Positions 2,859 through 20,017 of a stretch of DNA of 22,817 bases are shown in pieces (the stretch's first letter is position 1; the number at the start of each line of letters is the position of its first letter). The notes beneath the pieces were generated by a model that was not told where the DNA came from, ran no database searches, and was given only the letters and a program-made list of their open reading frames with translations. The DNA comes from a virus (taxonomy: Duplodnaviria; Heunggongvirae; Uroviricota; Caudoviricetes): IMG/VR virus record IMGVR_UViG_3300013126_000015, positions 1 to 22,817 of that record; one strand, written 5' to 3'. A program made the position numbers and the translations under genes.

Positions 2859-3142
2859 TATTGATTCGATATTATTGATAATGATATTCAATAACTATTG
2901 TGAATGATAATGATTATTGACTGATTATTGAATGATAATGATTCTTGTTATATATTAATTATTAAAGAGCGATACTAAATGGTAAGCACATATTGATGAT
3001 ATTGTCAAGTATTATATTTGAAGAATTCATTGTGTGATGTTCTCTTTTATGATACACATACTTTGGGAAAAAAGTCAATACTTGACAAAAAAATAAAAAT
3101 GTGTATAATAACGTTGTGGGAGAATGGTTGTTATATATAAAC

Positions 3143-3190
3143 GCGAAGCAGCCTTCCGGGACCTCCTGGACTCGTAGTCGGCATCACCCG
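3143..3190. ncRNA. Repeated GC-rich hairpin element, copy A (candidate small RNA; strand unresolved)
   Basis: GCGAAGCAGCCTTCCGGGACCTCCTGGACTCGTAGTCGGCATCACCCG, between + promoter TTGACA(3082)/TATAAT(3104) and - promoter (TGTCAA 3262-3267). Confidence 0.55.
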
Positions 3191-3363
3191 TACATCCTCA
3201 TTTAATTTCCTTTTACCCTTTCCTTTTAATCTGGGTATATTATTTCATATAATGCTCTAGATGTCAAGTGGTATTTTGAAAAAAATATTGCTAAAATGAA
3301 TGATTGACAAAATGGGTTGATCATGTATACTATATTAAAACATCAAGATGAATTGGAGCAAAT

Positions 3364-4254
3364 ATGTTTGAGCATATTACGTATCGTATTATTGGACCAT
3401 CTGACGGTAAGCAGCTTGTGAGTACTGGAAGAGAGAATGCTATAAAGGTGATGGATAATGTTATCACCAATGTAGAAACAGATGAAGAGATAATAGAGAG
3501 GATGCGTGTACGGTTTAATGTATTGGTTGACATGACCAAAGCGGTAAAGAAGGGTCATGTTAGATCGATGATTGTATCGGGACCTCCAGGAGTAGGCAAA
3601 TCATTTGGAGTTGAACAAGAATTAAGTAAGAATAAACTGATAGCTGAATTGGCCAGTAATGAATCATTGAAAAAATATGATATTGTAAAAGGATCAATGA
3701 CAGCATTAGGATTGTATGCTAAATTGTATCAATATAGACATGATCGTAATGTATTAGTGTTTGATGATTGTGATGAAATATTCTGGGATGTGGTATGCAT
3801 GAATTTATTAAAGGCAGCATTAGACAGTTCTAGAACCAGAAGGATAAATTGGTTAGCTGATAGTAACATGTTGCGGAAAGAAGATATCCCACATTCATTT
3901 GATTTTCATGGTGGAATTATATTTATTACTAATATGGATTTTGAAAAAGCCAGTCCAAAAATGAAACCACATGTAGAGGCATTGGAATCACGAAGTCATT
4001 ATTTAGACTTGACAATTAAGACAGAACGTGAGAAGATGTTAAGAATAAAGCAGATAATCATGGATGGAATGTTAGATGATTTAAGCTTGACAGACAACCA
4101 AAAGGATGATATCATAACTTATATAACTGATAACAAAACGAGATTGAGAGATTTATCATTAAGAACGGTATTAAAGACTGCTGGATTAGTAGCATCATTT
4201 CCTGATAGATGGCAATCTGTAGCGGAAATGACAATGATTAAAAAGAGCCGATAG
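3364..4254 (+). CDS. AAA+ family ATPase (phage type)
   Basis: Walker A GPPGVGKS, Walker B LVFDD, sensor FITN, Arg-finger ALESR; own promoter at 3304 and GGAG RBS. Confidence 0.9.
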   Translation: MFEHITYRIIGPSDGKQLVSTGRENAIKVMDNVITNVETDEEIIERMRVRFNVLVDMTKAVKKGHVRSMIVSGPPGVGKSFGVEQELSKNKLIAELASNESLKKYDIVKGSMTALGLYAKLYQYRHDRNVLVFDDCDEIFWDVVCMNLLKAALDSSRTRRINWLADSNMLRKEDIPHSFDFHGGIIFITNMDFEKASPKMKPHVEALESRSHYLDLTIKTEREKMLRIKQIIMDGMLDDLSLTDNQKDDIITYITDNKTRLRDLSLRTVLKTAGLVASFPDRWQSVAEMTMIKKSR

Positions 4255-6487: not shown

Positions 6488-7657
6488 ATGTCAAGAGCAA
6501 TTGAATCAGTAGCAGATAAATTAACGACAGCAAAAGTAAAATTGCTGTTTAGTCATCCATTTTTTGGAAATCTTGCTACCAGACTAAAAGTAAAAGATGC
6601 ATCAGAATGGTGCAATACATTAGCAACTGATGGTCGTAATTTATATTACAATCATGAATTTCTTGACAAATTGTCAATTAATGAAATCGAATTCGGGGTT
6701 GCTCATGAGCTATTGCATAATGTGTTTGACCATATGCGAAGAGTTGATAATCGTGATCGGAAGATTTGGAACTTTGCAACCGACTTTGCAGTAAATGGTC
6801 AATTGGTTCGAGATAAGATTGGAACGGTACCACATACCATCAATATCTTACATGATGCAAAATATTATGGAATGGGTTCAGAAGAAATATATGATGAACT
6901 CATTGAAAAACATAAAGACATGTTGGATAAGTTGGGACAATTGTTAGATGATCATATTGATTGGTCTAATGAAGATGGTAATGCTGATCCTAATCAACCG
7001 ACTTATACCAAAGAAGAATTGCAAGCCATTCGGGATGAAGTGGTTGAATCTGTGATTCAGGCATCACAAACAGCTGGTAATGTTCCAGCCGAGATTGCCC
7101 GATTGATTAAAACGATGACAGAACCAAAAATGAATTGGAGAGAGGTTCTAAGGAATCAAATTCAATCTATTTTGAAAAATGATTTCACATGGCAAAGACC
7201 ATCACGAAAAACGATGGCATATGGTATTTACCTACCATCATCAAATCATGATGAAACCATTGACATTTGTATTGCAATTGATATGTCAGGAAGTATTACA
7301 GATCAACAAGCTGGTATCTTCTTGAGTGAAATTCAAGGCATTATGGATGAATATAAAGAGTACAAGATTAAACTTTGGACATTTGATACCAAAGTTTATA
7401 ATGAACAAGACTTTTCATCTGATCAAGGTGATGATTTATCTGACTATGAAGTCATTGGAGGTGGTGGAACATCATTCGAATGTAACTGGGAATATATGAA
7501 AGAAAATAATATTGAACCTAAAAAGTTCATTATGTTCACGGATATGTATCCAAATTCCAGTTGGGGCGATGAAGATTACTGTGACACTATATTTTTGGGT
7601 CATGGAACAACTTCAATTGTTGCTCCATTTGGGACCACTATTTATTACGAAGATTGA
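6488..7657 (+). CDS. Putative metallopeptidase (HExxH) plus vWA domain protein, DUF2201-like MoxR partner
   Basis: N-terminal PFFG/ATDG, HELLH zincin motif; C-terminal MIDAS DMSGS, GGGGT and FTD. Confidence 0.88.
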   Translation: MSRAIESVADKLTTAKVKLLFSHPFFGNLATRLKVKDASEWCNTLATDGRNLYYNHEFLDKLSINEIEFGVAHELLHNVFDHMRRVDNRDRKIWNFATDFAVNGQLVRDKIGTVPHTINILHDAKYYGMGSEEIYDELIEKHKDMLDKLGQLLDDHIDWSNEDGNADPNQPTYTKEELQAIRDEVVESVIQASQTAGNVPAEIARLIKTMTEPKMNWREVLRNQIQSILKNDFTWQRPSRKTMAYGIYLPSSNHDETIDICIAIDMSGSITDQQAGIFLSEIQGIMDEYKEYKIKLWTFDTKVYNEQDFSSDQGDDLSDYEVIGGGGTSFECNWEYMKENNIEPKKFIMFTDMYPNSSWGDEDYCDTIFLGHGTTSIVAPFGTTIYYED

Positions 7658-8406
7658 TTTTTATTATAATCCTCATATAATTCTTCTATAGTTTTATGTG
7701 AGGATTTATGTTTCTTATAATTATCTTTATCAGAAATCATTCTGAGATTAGAAATATCGGATAAAATATTAATAGGAACATCATTTAGGAAACCATCGGT
7801 GACACTGTAAATATGGTCAAGATGATAATATTTACCACGTAATCCATCAGGGTCAATAATATGTTTGTTTCTTTCATATTGAGTATTAGCATATTGTTGA
7901 GCACGATGTCTATATTGTAGACGAGTCAATCCATCTATAGTATACGTTTTATTTTTATATACTTCTTTCCAATATTGTTTTTTTGAATTAGAAATTTGTT
8001 GTCTGACTTTTGGTATATAGGCTGGATTTGAAACGCCATAATTTTTCATAGTTGTTTCAATTTTCTTCAATTTGACACTTTCTAATTGAGATGCGTTGCC
8101 AACGCCTAATAATGTTTTCATATCATTCATTGCACAGGTACTATTACAATACCTATGATATTCTCTAGGTGTGTGTTTTCTAAATGATATTTCTTTACCA
8201 CATGATAAACATCCTGGTCGTTGTTTGATATTATAGGTGTAACAATATAAACGTTCATATAAAGAACACTTGCCAAGAAATGAAGTTTGTGATACAATAG
8301 TATTATACAATGATGGATATTTAAGTTTAAAATGATACTCTCGCACGGTGTGATATATGGTATCTAATCCATGAGATATTAAAAATTGTTCTACTTTGCT
8401 TGCCAT
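7645..8406 (-). CDS. Free-standing HNH-type homing endonuclease-like protein
   Basis: CxxC...C motif, (Y/L)GV-x-N repeats and C-terminal HLDHIYS...SNLRMI...DNYKKH; convergent with the vWA gene, overlapping it by 13 bp. Confidence 0.7.
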   Translation of the reverse strand: MASKVEQFLISHGLDTIYHTVREYHFKLKYPSLYNTIVSQTSFLGKCSLYERLYCYTYNIKQRPGCLSCGKEISFRKHTPREYHRYCNSTCAMNDMKTLLGVGNASQLESVKLKKIETTMKNYGVSNPAYIPKVRQQISNSKKQYWKEVYKNKTYTIDGLTRLQYRHRAQQYANTQYERNKHIIDPDGLRGKYYHLDHIYSVTDGFLNDVPINILSDISNLRMISDKDNYKKHKSSHKTIEELYEDYNKNQSS

Positions 8407-8493
8407 AATTGTTAACCTATGTTATAATATACTATTATAGACAAAAAATTAATATGATACAACTATCTACTATGAAGATTAATAAATACTGTC

Positions 8494-8691
8494 ATGAAAC
8501 AGTATAATATTACCCTTCACTATCAAGAACCCTTACGGGATGACTATGGGTTTCCACGCTTCGGAGAGAAGGTCGTGGAAATCCTATCAACCAATATGAA
8601 TTATGTTTATTCTACATTAGATAAAATGTTTGGTAAAGGTAATTATGATATAACAAAAATATCTGAAACAATGGTTGACAATTCTAAATAA
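8494..8691 (+). CDS. Hypothetical protein
   Basis: 65-aa ORF; the next promoter's TTGACA (8675) lies in its last codons. Confidence 0.65.
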   Translation: MKQYNITLHYQEPLRDDYGFPRFGEKVVEILSTNMNYVYSTLDKMFGKGNYDITKISETMVDNSK

Positions 8692-8731
8692 TTCATGTAT
8701 CATTAAGACTAATAAACAATACAGGTGATTT

Positions 8732-8980
8732 ATGACAGATACATTTATTGCAACTGGTATGGGTAGGGTTAATGGTAAATTAAAACTACGTTGGTCTAAT
8801 GATCCAGGATTCTGTTTAACACAGTATAAATCACGTGGTGAGAAAGATGTCATCATGATTGAATTATCTCAACCATTGACTAAGGTTGGTTGTGTTCGAT
8901 ACATGAAACAAATGGTATCAGAATTTCATGATCAAGAACATCTTCAAGTTATCGATCAATATCTTGAAAAACATTTATAA
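8732..8980 (+). CDS. Hypothetical protein
   Basis: 82-aa ORF with AGGTG RBS and promoter 8675/8698. Confidence 0.75.
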   Translation: MTDTFIATGMGRVNGKLKLRWSNDPGFCLTQYKSRGEKDVIMIELSQPLTKVGCVRYMKQMVSEFHDQEHLQVIDQYLEKHL

Positions 8981-8993
8981 TTAAAATAACAAT

Positions 8994-9197
8994 ATGCGAT
9001 ATGATAAAGATTCAGTAAAGATTCTAATTAAACAAGCTACCACCATATTCATGGATGATAAACTCTATGAAATCAATTGGTGTGATGATGATCAATTCCA
9101 GGCTACAGATGAAAATGGAATCCCTGATATCTTTTGGTATGAAGATATTAATATCAATGAAGTATTAATATATAAGACTACTCTACTAAACCCATAG
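8994..9197 (+). CDS. Hypothetical acidic protein
   Basis: 67-aa ORF, possibly a distant paralog of 16771..16998. Confidence 0.7.
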   Translation: MRYDKDSVKILIKQATTIFMDDKLYEINWCDDDQFQATDENGIPDIFWYEDININEVLIYKTTLLNP

Positions 9198-9200
9198 ACG

Positions 9201-9349
9201 AGAGTTCCCGCTGCGCTATCTCTATACTGGGTATTATATACCAAGAGTTCCCGCTGCGCTATCTAGCGATGCTCAATTGTGGTAGGTTCCCGCTGCACTA
9301 TTGACATAACCATGTCATATATGATATAATATAATAGAGTTCCCGCTGC
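9201..9349 (+). repeat. Four direct copies of the GTTCCCGCTGC core around a promoter
   Basis: Cores start at 9204, 9247, 9286 and 9339 (periods 43, 39, 53); TTGACA(9301)-N18-TATAAT(9325) lies between copies 3 and 4. Confidence 0.95.
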
Positions 9350-9368
9350 TACATATGAGGATAAGTTA

Positions 9369-9632: not shown

Positions 9633-9892
9633 TGGCACTTGAAGAGACCATGCCATATATTGATTTGATGACTATCATATATGCTGCAGAACAGGAAAAT
9701 GCTAATATCGATTTTGCCATCTTTACCCAATATGAAAATAATATCAGGGGATTAATACATTATCTGTATTTTCGTCAGCAAATGTTGGGACAAGATAACT
9801 ATCATCTTGAAGATGTTACCATTGAATTATTTTTCCATGATTATACTGACATTGAATGGTACAACACATTCAAAGAATTTCTCAATAGATAA
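9629..9892 (+). CDS. Hypothetical protein
   Basis: 87-aa ORF with ATGA overlap to the upstream gene. Confidence 0.75.
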   Translation: MMALEETMPYIDLMTIIYAAEQENANIDFAIFTQYENNIRGLIHYLYFRQQMLGQDNYHLEDVTIELFFHDYTDIEWYNTFKEFLNR

Positions 9893-10129
9893 TCATTCTC
9901 ATTTTGTATTTTAAATCATAATCATTCTCATTTTAAATGTGAGTTAAGAATATAATTTGCATAATACAATCATATCATAATTTTAAAGAGCTGTCAAGGA
10001 TTATTTTCAAGATCCTGATTTTTGTGATTGTCACTTCCAGTATACCATGAAAAAATAATTTTGTCAAGTCTTGACAACAACGTCGAACTATGCTATAATA
10101 ATAGTAGCGAATATTAGTTTACCTATATT

Positions 10130-10174
10130 CGAGACAACGTTCCGGGACTCCCTGGACTCTTAGCCACCATCACG
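10130..10174. ncRNA. Repeated GC-rich hairpin element, copy B (diverged)
   Basis: CGAGACAACGTTCCGGGACTCCCTGGACTCTTAGCCACCATCACG, between + promoter 10071/10094 and - promoter (TGTCAA 10248-10253). Confidence 0.55.
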
Positions 10175-10336
10175 TGAGCATCATCATTTAAAATCCTTTT
10201 TATCTTTCCCTTTTTGTTGGACATATTATTTCATATTATCATCTATATGTCAACAATTATTTTTATTATTTTTTAGTTGACAATTGAAATTTTTCCTGTA
10301 TTATATACCTATCTTTTAAATAACGGGATTATGGTC

Positions 10337-10513
10337 ATGGCCAAAATTACAATTAGTTTACCGTTACGTCGATATGCTATGTTTTGGGACAGTATTAGAT
10401 GCCGTAATTATATGATTGTAATATCAGGCAATGATTTAGATTATGCACCACTATGGGGAAATTTTGTTACCTGGGTTGGCGCAATAAAACAACCAACGAT
10501 TATCACAAAATAA
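10337..10513 (+). CDS. Hypothetical protein (start corrected from track; ATG 10331 or 10337)
   Basis: The track's TTG start at 10277 is the -35 box of its promoter; GGGA precedes the ATGs. Confidence 0.5.
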   Translation: MAKITISLPLRRYAMFWDSIRCRNYMIVISGNDLDYAPLWGNFVTWVGAIKQPTIITK

Positions 10514-11238: not shown

Positions 11239-11496
11239 ATGTTAGCCAACACAAAACAAACAAGAAAGATTGTCAATGATACATTAAACAGTGTATTGTA
11301 TAATTATTGCAATAAGACTTGGACAGATCGGGATCATCGAACGATTGATGATGGCAAGCGAATTGTTGTATTTGAAATAATGTCAAACAATTTAGATGTT
11401 CTGAGTCGAGAAATTAAACAACGATTTATCAATGCTGGATTTGACAATCGTATCACGGTATCACAAAAATATATTCGAATAGCATCAATATTGTGA
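11239..11496 (+). CDS. Hypothetical protein
   Basis: ATG 11239 after AGGTG RBS is more plausible than the track start 11212. Confidence 0.7.
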   Translation: MLANTKQTRKIVNDTLNSVLYNYCNKTWTDRDHRTIDDGKRIVVFEIMSNNLDVLSREIKQRFINAGFDNRITVSQKYIRIASIL

Positions 11497-11557
11497 TTGA
11501 CAATTAGCTGGGTATATGAAATAATATACCCACTTTCAAACAACTAGGACAACGATC
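11497..11557 (+). promoter_or_regulatory. Family-A promoter/leader cassette (TTGACA-N17-AATAAT, inverted repeat over -10, leader ATATACCCACTTTCAAAC); also at 13799, downstream half at 21412
   Basis: TGGGTATAT (11509-17) / ATATACCCA (11524-32); near-identical block at 13799-13859. Confidence 0.8.
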
Positions 11558-11899
11558 ATGACTACCATCACAAAATCATTCAATGAAGTTCATGCTGAAG
11601 CATTGGTTGCCGCACGTAAGGCAGGATTAGAGTACTTTAACACTGTATTGAATGGTGTTGATCAATATGCTTGCGGTTTTGCATGGGTAAGATTGCCTGA
11701 AGTGAAACTTAATACCAAACTTGGTAAACAGATTGCTGCTTGTGGATTTTCAAAATCATACAATAAAGGTGTGGAATTATGGAATCCATCCGGTTTACAT
11801 TGTCAAAATATTGACGCTAAAGAAGCTGGTGCTAATGCCTATGCTACGGTAATGCAACAAAATGGATATGTTGCTTATTCAGAATCAAGATTAGATTAA
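11558..11899 (+). CDS. Conserved phage hypothetical protein
   Basis: 113 aa with CGFAWV, WNPS and SRLD motifs typical of a phage early-gene family; AGGA RBS. Confidence 0.8.
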   Translation: MTTITKSFNEVHAEALVAARKAGLEYFNTVLNGVDQYACGFAWVRLPEVKLNTKLGKQIAACGFSKSYNKGVELWNPSGLHCQNIDAKEAGANAYATVMQQNGYVAYSESRLD

Positions 11900-12286: not shown

Positions 12287-12397
12287 AAACTTGACAAATT
12301 ATTTAAAATATGAAATAATATAGTCATAGTAATCGGATAGGTAATCAATCCTATCGTGGCATCCAAGAGGGGATAGGTGCGTTTATAAAAAATATAT

Positions 12398-12444
12398 GCG
12401 AAGCAGCCTTCCGGGACTTCCTGGACCATGGTCGGCATCACCCG
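12398..12444. ncRNA. Repeated GC-rich hairpin element, copy C
   Basis: GCGAAGCAGCCTTCCGGGACTTCCTGGACCATGGTCGGCATCACCCG, between + promoter 12291 and - promoter (TGTCAA 12490-95, AGTATA 12468-73). Confidence 0.55.
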
Positions 12445-12579
12445 AACCACCTCTTTACTATGGTTATAGTATACACTAAAATTTTTTATTGTCAAGTTAT
12501 TTTTTAAATATATTTTTGTTGACATCTTAAATTTTTCCTGTATATTATGTTTCATCAAGTAACCAACCAGGAAAATAAA

Positions 12580-12891
12580 ATGTCAACCATCATCATCAAA
12601 TCAGTTTCATATGATAACTTCACTCATGAAGAATATCGTGATCTTACCTTTAGACCATCGCATGAATTGGTTAGAAAGCATCTACCACGTTATAAAGTAT
12701 CTAAACATATCATTGTTCCGCAATATGCCGAAGCAGCAGCTGAAGAAGCATTTGATCTAACCAACAATCCTTCACGTCAAGATGAACGTGAAGAAAAATA
12801 TGGTAATGGTAAATCATTATCAGTTGGTGATGTTGTCGAAGTTAATGGTGTGAATTATCTTTGTGAATCATTCGGTTGGGCAATACTTTAA
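12580..12891 (+). CDS. Hypothetical protein with YodL-like C-terminal motif
   Basis: SLSVGDVVEVNG...YLCESFGW; ATG 12580 after CAGGA; promoter 12519. Confidence 0.7.
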   Translation: MSTIIIKSVSYDNFTHEEYRDLTFRPSHELVRKHLPRYKVSKHIIVPQYAEAAAEEAFDLTNNPSRQDEREEKYGNGKSLSVGDVVEVNGVNYLCESFGWAIL

Positions 12892-19964: not shown

Positions 19965-20017
19965 TTGACAATCCAAAAATAATCCTGTATACTATCCCCA
20001 TACTTTAGGAGATGGTT
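19965..20017 (+). promoter_or_regulatory. Family-C promoter cassette (TTGACA...AATCCTG-TATACT-ATCCCCATACTTTA(A)GGAGAT); also at 20210, 22694, with variants at 10517, 20760, 21122 and a leader-only copy near 20482
   Basis: Near-identical blocks read directly from the sequence. Confidence 0.9.

Follow-up and report, generated by a model that had tools for sequence, protein, structure and literature searches.

Introduction

Face-to-face promoters about 100–200 bp apart, complementary short transcripts and small stem-loops with loops of 4–6 nt in the overlap characterise the convergent-promoter cis-antisense modules, among them ColE1 RNA I/RNA II, R1 CopA/CopT, P22 sar/ant and coliphage 186 pR/pL. 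The nut sites of phage λ (boxA/boxB) and the put sites of phage HK022 each pair a conserved linear element with a hairpin close to the promoter, whose loop is conserved and whose stem varies with compensation; they occur in more than one copy per genome. In T4-type phages, the promoter-early stem-loop (PeSL) cassettes combine a consensus sigma-70 early promoter, preceded by an AT-rich region, with a stem-loop inside or beside it; the stem-loops fall into five subclasses by placement, have a terminator or attenuator role and are not conserved in sequence as such (Arbiol et al. 2010, PMC2839356; Comeau et al. 2014, PMC4122927). Here we describe a unit that is present three times (copies A, B and C) in a 22,817-nt stretch of phage DNA, the first 22.8 kb of the 102-kb IMG/VR virus record IMGVR_UViG_3300013126_000015; this whole stretch is referred to as the window. 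In the unit, a conserved core of 47–75 nt lies between two convergent promoters, P+up on the + strand and P− on the − strand, and the core carries a hairpin, HP1, and 6 nt downstream of it a second hairpin, HP2. The unit is real, conserved and non-coding, and it matches no Rfam family; no described equivalent was found in the literature. The three copies lie between early genes and, judged from the sequence, the unit probably controls early transcription.

The unit looks like a variant of the PeSL-type and cis-antisense cassettes. Like the PeSLs, it is a short intergenic cassette repeated in the hyperplastic early region of a T4-like phage, it combines a stem-loop with consensus sigma-70 promoters (11–12 of the 12 consensus positions matched on both sides), and its copies appear to recombine, as in the mosaic copy L089a described below. 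In contrast to the PeSLs, its core is conserved in sequence between convergent promoters, one hairpin has a covarying stem and a loop that never changes, one of the promoters points opposite to the genes, and the hairpins lie outside the promoters, with neither a terminator-like site nor a U tract. The likeness to the cis-antisense modules lies in the promoter spacing, in the small stem-loops of the overlap and in the complementary short transcripts, which are predicted here. The unit differs from them in that it has no defined terminator for the countertranscript (only a variant in the related contig L090 has a terminator-like end) and no target ribosome-binding site (RBS) within the overlap; in the contig L057, the RBS lies under P− itself. 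In addition, the phage appears lytic and has no switch gene, and several copies with a common loop sequence occur per genome. With nut and put the unit shares all the features listed above. It differs in having no N-like protein, no boxA consensus and no demonstrated downstream terminators, and neither nut nor put includes a convergent promoter.

Three Copies of the Unit in the Window

The core sequence TCCGGGACNNCCTGGA occurs exactly three times in the window, always on the + strand (3155, 10141 and 12410), where 0.07 occurrences are expected from shuffles; a fourth copy was not found in the 102-kb record with an nhmmer profile of the core. The first-pass annotation of this DNA had described the three cores accurately. 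The HP1 loop reads ACCT in A, ACTC in B and ACTT in C, HP1 has one G-U pair on the + strand and an A-C mismatch on the − strand, and A and C are near-identical across the core, with B retaining the stem and CATCAC. It was also right to place every copy between a + strand promoter and a − strand promoter. Both promoters are of the consensus type and about 185–205 bp apart (Table 1); the promoter scan gave spacers of 16–17 for the − promoters. The promoter score used throughout is the number of matches to the 12 consensus positions, and a strong convergent pair was counted if its members were at most 450 bp apart. By this count the 102-kb record has only four such pairs, of which three are these copies and the fourth encloses a 55-aa gene. 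The window, at 32% G+C, has 33 strong consensus sigma-70 promoters on the + strand. Only seven strong minus-strand promoters were found in the + oriented first 30 kb, and three of these are the P− of A, B and C, while two more lie just left of B. The hairpins sit 35–85 nt downstream of P+up and 25–70 nt downstream of P−, and none is within or at a promoter.

CU-rich tails had been described on the + strand. A long tail is borne out for A and B only, the tail of C being short. The long-tail form of A is common to B and to the copies L058, L090b, L092 and L089b of related contigs. The CU-rich + tail is the complement of the purine-rich leader and Shine-Dalgarno (SD) sequence of the minus-strand cassette.

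The initial judgement that the element is not a described RNA family holds. A scan of the whole window with Rfam release 15, up to E = 1, gave no match at 3100–3270, 10100–10260 or 12320–12500; the matches elsewhere were four tRNAs and weak chance matches.

A Family of Units in One Narrow Clade

A metagenome scan with a 22-base pattern yielded five true homologs, in the contigs L057–L061. A covariance model built from the first eight copies was then run on the contigs of close AAA-ATPase homologs and added nine copies, in L089 (three), L090 (two), L092, L093, L096 and L099. This brings the family to a minimum of 17 copies, spread over about 11 contigs from a single narrow clade of T4-like jumbo phages; about 14 of them lie beyond the window, in about 10 contigs. 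All 17 copies share the orientation of the flanking genes. By neighbouring genes, L058 is the ortholog of copy A and L057 the ortholog of copy C; L060 sits in a 450-kb contig. The covariance-model search found the element absent from 25 IMG/VR relatives with 50–60% AAA-ATPase identity and from L094 and L095, and a search for further C-site copies through homologs of the protein upstream of C returned only itself. No GenBank phage matched the region or the whole window by BLAST.

Other searches with parts of the element gave chance matches. Those to the HP1 core in IMG/VR (n = 53) were all of this kind, mostly GC-rich sequence coding for F-R-D-x-L-D, while the three AT-rich ones (L006, L011 and L033) are internal to a tail-tube-like gene and encode ..GSPGGPG... 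When IMG/VR was scanned with two variants of HP2, chance matches alone were returned. A scan of species genomes with HP1 plus the CATCAC-loop pattern gave a single chance match, in Streptomyces, and there is no sign in that scan that the core copies a host sequence. Four IMG/VR contigs with 62–69% GC (L138, L139, L140 and L142) have the hairpin GGCCC-GCCACCATCACGTGAGC-GGGCC in common; apart from a 17-mer that matches by chance, this hairpin has no relation to the element.

HP2 Covaries and HP1 Does Not

The first-pass annotation had taken HP1 as the centre of the element and had expected its stem to covary among homologs. Covariation is indeed found, in HP2; HP1 itself never covaries. The relatives show a constant part made up of the putative backward promoter plus HP2. 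The first-pass annotation had not described HP2, nor the tandem-repeat nature of HP1, the leftward promoters left of A and B, or the second + promoter (P+down) right of the units.

HP2 has five pairs, one bulge and the loop CAUCAC (GUGAUG on the − strand), which on the minus strand contains the ATG of a small open reading frame (ORF). Among 16 copies, the stem reads GUCGG/CCG.AC, GCCAC/GUG.GC, AUCGG/CCG.AU, AUCAG/CUG.AU or GUCAC/GUG.AC around an invariant loop, and four of the five pairs change on both sides in a compensatory way. The compensatory cells number 16, where shuffles gave 5.1 ± 1.8 and 0 of 500 shuffles reached 16, and sliding the HP2 partners by 1–3 columns left no compensatory cells. 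Within the one genome of the window, the arms are GUCGG..CCG.AC in A and C and GCCAC..GUG.GC in B. A compensatory difference between copies of the same genome points to a fold of a single strand as the thing under constraint, rather than a dyad in duplex DNA; the protein-bound DNA dyad that had been offered for the element is not supported as an account of HP2. An additional 5′ hairpin, HP0, shows two compensatory pairs between copy C and L090b (L090:13716–13875, GCAAAGG..CCTTTGG).

HP1 is a tandem 9-mer, TTCCNGGAC twice, with the general form TTCC(G/T)GGAC in both halves. The tandem repeat is perfect in L093, and in L089a it differs at the last base only. The variable pairs of HP1 go from G-C to G-U in L092 and from G-U to U-U in L089a and L093. 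In three copies (L090a, L099 and L089c) HP1 is swapped for unrelated short hairpins, and in L089b it is decayed. The invariance of HP1 without covariation leaves room for it to be read at the DNA level or in a sequence-specific manner.

This bears on the proposal that the unit acts as DNA, either as a PeSL-type recombination scar, as a protein site on the 9-mers (TTCCNGGAC twice) or as a transcription-activated origin. In the origin version, promoter-driven R-loops would form over the GC-rich core, which is flanked by AT-rich DNA, and T4 origins depend on promoters; however, nothing specific supports an origin here. An invariant, non-covarying HP1 in the form of a tandem direct repeat, perfect in L093, is consistent with a DNA element, and the mosaic L089a shows recombination between copies, as described for PeSLs (PMC2839356). 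The compensatory changes of HP2 and HP0 between same-genome paralogs, however, fit neither a neutral scar nor a duplex site, and against the scar in particular stands the strict retention of orientation and position across about 11 contigs. We regard a DNA-level element as rather improbable.

Several further structures were considered and rejected. A long-range closing helix from the 5′ leader to the 3′ tail is unsupported by RNAalifold, and a third hairpin left of HP1, GAAG-CAGC-CUUC, is broken in B and L059. Hairpins with a GUGAUG loop are not a general gene-start feature of the phage, as only the three copies and a few unrelated chance sites have them.

Promoters Are Kept on Both Sides

A P− of at least 10/12 is found at a fixed place in 14 of the 17 copies, its −35 box lying 58–90 bp from the HP2 loop. 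Weaker −35 boxes can be seen by eye in L096, L099 and L089b, and L059 ends at the contig end. P+up is present in 12 of the 17; the more distant L093, L096, L099 and L090a lack it, and L060 has a weak one.

The promoters at these two positions are drawn from several families. Ordinary promoters of the window belong to the PeSL type, in which a hairpin separates the −35 box from the −10 box (for example, AGCCAAGGATGGCT). In A and B, the −10 box and leader of P− fall in one family with those of the gene promoters at 11497 and 13799. The P− of C and L057 is the promoter-leader-RBS cassette of the gene starts at 19965, 20210 and 22694, and the ATG in the HP2 loop falls about where the genes of that cassette begin. 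In L090b, P+up has a hairpin in its spacer and differs from the P+up of C, but the leader that follows it is the same as in C. L089a is a mosaic in which the 5′ part of A is joined to the core of C. The mosaic and the swapped promoter families point to recombination between the copies; even so, each side retains a promoter. That promoter families are exchanged while positions are kept argues that selection maintains transcription from both sides. L057 lacks P+down. Its downstream gene is without a separate promoter, and the start codon of that gene overlaps the −35 box of P−; there, the element would be the 5′ leader of the downstream gene, opposed by P−.

In relatives, two to five leftward promoters are arrayed in the same gaps, with or without the element. 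Such tandem consensus promoters pointing against the genes are seen at L099:650–900, L090:11380–11810 and L093:9240–9450; the arrays precede AAA-ATPase and DUF7227 genes, and the five of L099 are 35–55 bp apart. A MotA-box middle promoter on the minus strand (TGCTT) was rejected, the spacing being inconsistent and the motif absent in B and L059.

The gap in L090 holds a variant unit (11468–11560, − strand) with a backward promoter, two hairpins, GCCGCU-ACA-AGCGGU among them, and a block in common with the copy at L089:11743. Next come a further hairpin, GGGUU-N10-AACCC, and UAUUUUUU, a terminator-like U run, and the variant looks like a discrete small RNA gene with a predicted length of about 88 nt. 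After the backward promoter at 11802 of L090, T-arm-like motifs, GGTTCGATTCC and GGTTCGAAACC, are found at 11640–11740 (− strand). A tRNA-like reading of this gap was rejected, as ARAGORN called no tRNA.

Coding Potential

The first-pass annotation had reported no conserved ORF, and among the copies none is found on either strand. It had also described correctly that the minus strand of A and B encodes a mini-ORF (MRMYG/MMMLT, then a stop) overlapping a 17/15-aa ORF and that C is 1 nt shorter, with the frame shifted. Every copy has an ATG-started minus-strand ORF of 9–51 codons, differing in frame, length and tail. A 1-nt indel splits a ..SPGSPG(R/T)L.. class from a ..VQEVPE.. class, with the nucleotides the same in both; conservation thus lies in the nucleotide sequence rather than in a peptide. 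Over the GC-rich core, none of the three minus-strand frames is closed by a stop, and the ORFs of the + strand are equally inconsistent. No conserved hydrophobic or membrane-type segment was seen among the minus-strand peptides of the copies.

These data bear on what kind of small-RNA module the unit may be. The suggestion of a non-coding small-RNA module stands in so far as the unit is conserved and non-coding and keeps both flanking promoters in relatives. Two forms considered for it are not supported. A type I toxin-antitoxin-like unit is at odds with minus-strand peptides that are not hydrophobic, fall in two frames, range from 9 to 51 aa and have unrelated tails, and a ribozyme is at odds with the absence of an Rfam match and with ordinary folding energies.

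Some translation of the minus RNA is likely, since the P− leader and SD sequence are those of real genes. It is tempting to extend this to a translated micro-ORF, in which the P− leader and SD would drive translation from the AUG in the HP2 loop, with the + RNA as an antisense repressor in the arrangement of a type I toxin-antitoxin unit; in long-tail copies, translation would be coupled through UGAUG after the 5-codon upstream ORF, and the function would reside in translation or in the peptide. The AUG is at the gene-start position of a real gene-start cassette and is followed by an ORF in every copy; a GAGG-type SD, read by eye, lies 8–11 nt upstream in 11 of the 17 copies; the mini-ORF with its UGAUG overlap is kept in A, B, L058, L090b, L092 and L089b; and the type-1 peptides share ..SPG(S/G)PG(R/T)L.(R/K)(V/I). 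However, the two frame classes on the same nucleotides mean that the peptide is not conserved, ORF length carries no signal where all three frames are open, and the peptide tails are unrelated and without a membrane-type segment. Moreover, the SD is missing in six of the 17 copies and the L090 variant has no ORF. A micro-ORF is, in our view, a distinctly improbable explanation of the unit.

A Proposed Countertranscript Cassette

We tentatively favour, at somewhat less than even likelihood, the proposal that the unit is a countertranscript cassette, in which head-on transcription, sense-antisense pairing or both would gate early transcription at gene boundaries. P− would be borrowed from the ordinary promoter-leader-RBS cassettes and would fire against the direction of the early genes. 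About 20–45 nt into the P− transcript, HP2 would form with its invariant GUGAUG loop, followed in most copies by the tandem 9-mer GUCCAGGAA-GUCCCGGAA, the complement of HP1. In 12 of the 17 copies, P+up, 90–160 nt off, would fire into the same stretch, so that two complementary short RNAs are predicted; the overlap of the predicted convergent transcripts is 90–160 nt. Polymerases from the two promoters would collide head-on and the complementary RNAs would pair. Collision and pairing together would gate or insulate rightward early transcription and confine both transcripts to the gap. HP2 would be the structured RNA part for a partner, either a protein or a complementary loop from the opposite strand of any copy. 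A loop-loop partner drawn from any copy would explain why all copies have the same loop. Promoter firing, transcript ends and regulatory effect are all inferred here from sequence features.

A number of points weigh against this proposal. The collision model by itself gives no account of the conservation of the core sequence, the invariant loop and the 9-mers, and cis-antisense pairing alone needs no invariant loop. HP1 shows no covariation across 13 copies, four of its pairs being invariant, and its G-U pair on the + strand may follow merely from the one-base difference between the 9-mers. Neither strand of the core is unusually stable when folded (mean z −0.4 and −0.2), and thermodynamics therefore does not single out a strand. 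The evidence on the strand is itself conflicting. The G-U of HP1, including a second one in L092, fits the + strand, whereas the sole half-compensated HP2 (L089a, with A-C on the + strand and G-U on the − strand) fits the − strand. A scan of the three window copies found no intrinsic terminator on either strand. Finally, relatives with 50–60% AAA-ATPase identity do without the element, which is thus dispensable for the gene layout.

An alternative is a trans-acting early small RNA or protein sponge, in which one of the two short RNAs would be made in bulk right after infection and would bind a host or phage factor. The factor might be a protein that recognises the HP2 loop and the 9-mer or the GGA-rich leader, or the CU-rich + RNA might pair with RBSs; the opposite promoter would only tune the RNA level. 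An invariant loop on a covarying stem is the pattern of protein-recognised RNA hairpins, as in λ boxB and the MS2 operator, and HP1 is conserved in sequence without covariation. The promoters are of consensus strength, the minus leader of A, B, L058, L090b and L092 is GGA/purine-rich and the + tail CCUC/CU-rich, and the L090 variant has a terminator-like end. On the other hand, the canonical copies have no terminator, the GGA motifs are lacking where HP1 is replaced (L099, L090a and L089c), a standard leader and RBS cassette, to which it is complementary, accounts in full for the CU-rich tail, and no host sequence matched the core in the species-genome scan. Taken together, a sponge is unlikely. 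A related proposal, that HP2 and the tandem 9-mer form a site for an unknown phage or host RNA-binding factor, with both strands made deliberately, seems to us quite unlikely.

A promoter-proximal hairpin with a conserved loop and covarying stem beside a conserved linear element is also what would be expected of a nut/put-type antitermination or operator site, in which HP2 and the linear sequence, near the start of the P− transcript and of the + transcript, would load a factor on polymerase or bind a repressor, with read-through or a block farther along the transcript as the outcome. Such a site could serve leftward transcription reaching the minus-strand HD-GYP and sigma-like genes, and the A-site copy does lie 0.3–1.5 kb right of the minus-strand HD/sigma genes in the window, L089, L090, L092 and L093. 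But no N-like or Q-like protein was identified, minus-strand genes are absent within 4 kb of the C site, and a weak promoter at 2364 belongs to the HD-GYP gene itself. Furthermore, L090 has a 252-aa minus-strand gene without a canonical B-site element, and L089 the reverse. We consider an antitermination or operator site very improbable.

Coordinates and Neighbouring Features

The features of the three copies and the promoters beside them are collected in Table 1. The two leftward promoters left of A have orthologs in L058, L092 and L089a, and the first of them is back-to-back with P+up. The P+up of B is likewise back-to-back with a leftward promoter, with a third leftward promoter further left.

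Table 1. Positions of the hairpins and promoters of copies A, B and C in the window; scores are matches out of 12 consensus positions.
Feature	Position	Strand	Description
A, P+up	3082–3109	+	TTGACA-16-TATAAT, 12/12; kept in orthologous L058, L092, L089a
A, HP1	3155–3170	+	TCCGGG-ACCT-CCTGGA; part of tandem 9-mer TTCCGGGAC-CTCCTGGAC
A, HP2	3177–3193	unassigned	GTCGG-CATCAC-CCG(T)AC; RNAalifold prediction
A, CU-rich tail	3194–3238		CU-rich on +; on −, purine-rich leader, SD-like boxes and 5-codon mini-ORF
A, P−	3239–3267	−	TTGACA-17-AATAAT with TG, 11/12; −35 at 3267
B, P+up	10071–10099	+	12/12 with TG
B, HP1	10141–10156	+	TCCGGG-ACTC-CCTGGA
B, HP2	10163–10179	unassigned	GCCAC-CATCAC-GTG(A)GC; three pairs unlike A/C, all compensatory
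B, P−	10225–10253	−	11/12 with TG; −35 at 10253
C, P+up	12291–12319	+	11/12 with TG
C, HP0	12336–12355	unassigned	Additional 5′ hairpin, GATAGG-TAATCAAT-CCTATC
C, HP1	12410–12425	+	TCCGGG-ACTT-CCTGGA
C, HP2	12431–12447	unassigned	GTCGG-CATCAC-CCG(A)AC
C, P−	12468–12495	−	TTGACA-16-TATACT, 11/12; −35 at 12495
Two more leftward promoters left of A	2979–3078	−	−35 at 3078 and 3008, 10/12 each
Two more leftward promoters left of B	9969–10067	−	−35 at 10067 and 9997, 11/12 each with TG
P+down of the AAA-ATPase gene (A)	3304–3331	+	Diverges from P−
P+down equivalent (B)	10277–10304	+	Gene-proximal, just right of the unit
P+down equivalent (C)	12519–12546	+	Gene-proximal, just right of the unit

Just left of A and B, at 2877–2952 and 9888–9929, sequences that agree with GATAATGATAATCATTATC, a Fur-box-like motif, at 14–16 of 19 positions form clusters. 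These clusters come immediately after the leftward promoters at 3008/3078 and 9997/10067, on their downstream side. Fur-box-like matches number 35 in the whole record, against 10–18 in shuffles, and the clusters suggest that leftward transcription may be under iron-dependent control.

In the stretches 12519–12580 and 10277–10340, the listed ORF starts at 12547 and 10277 fall inside the −10 or −35 boxes of their own promoters. The real starts must therefore be downstream, for example at Met-12 of the 114-aa ORF, at about 12580.

The proteins of the window point to a distant uncultured T4-like jumbo phage; the completeness of the 102-kb record is 28% by CheckV. The AAA protein (3364–4254) is about 40% identical to proteins of PA5oct, KVP40-like and T4-like phages, and the window also encodes a sigma region-2 protein, an HD-GYP protein and DUF7227. 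The genes next to the units are small ORFans without a known family. A 253-aa minus-strand gene (7645–8406) matches the homing-endonuclease PHROG phrog_3339 (E = 7e-7) and is probably a mobile insertion; this homing-endonuclease-like gene (252/253 aa) is found in L090 and absent from L089. A GC-rich 22-mer, AGAGTTCCCGCTGCGGTATCTA, has two + strand copies at 2247–2329, where the cluster adjoins the start of the minus-strand HD-GYP gene, and four at 9201–9357. In L094, two genes of the TnpB/IS605 OrfB type (723–1979 and 7779–9035) lie on the opposite strand beside ribonucleotide reductase genes.

Implications

In large lytic phages, the early region is commonly seen as a series of promoter-gene cassettes that all run one way, and the unit described here departs from that picture. 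It is a non-coding unit under apparent selection for transcription of both strands, with different promoter families recruited to the same two positions. If it is an insulator or switch, it would be a compact part that controls transcription at gene boundaries without an evident terminator, and the PeSL concept would be extended from promoter plus terminator to promoter against promoter. If instead HP2 and the 9-mers are the site of an RNA-binding factor, the unit would be a new RNA device of early infection and more than a passive boundary of transcription. It might then be a decoy or sponge, of double-stranded or structured RNA, against a host nuclease, regulator or defence sensor, or alternatively a loading site that makes backward transcription processive. 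As an abundant early RNA that binds such a factor, it would be a new tool of phage take-over or counter-defence.

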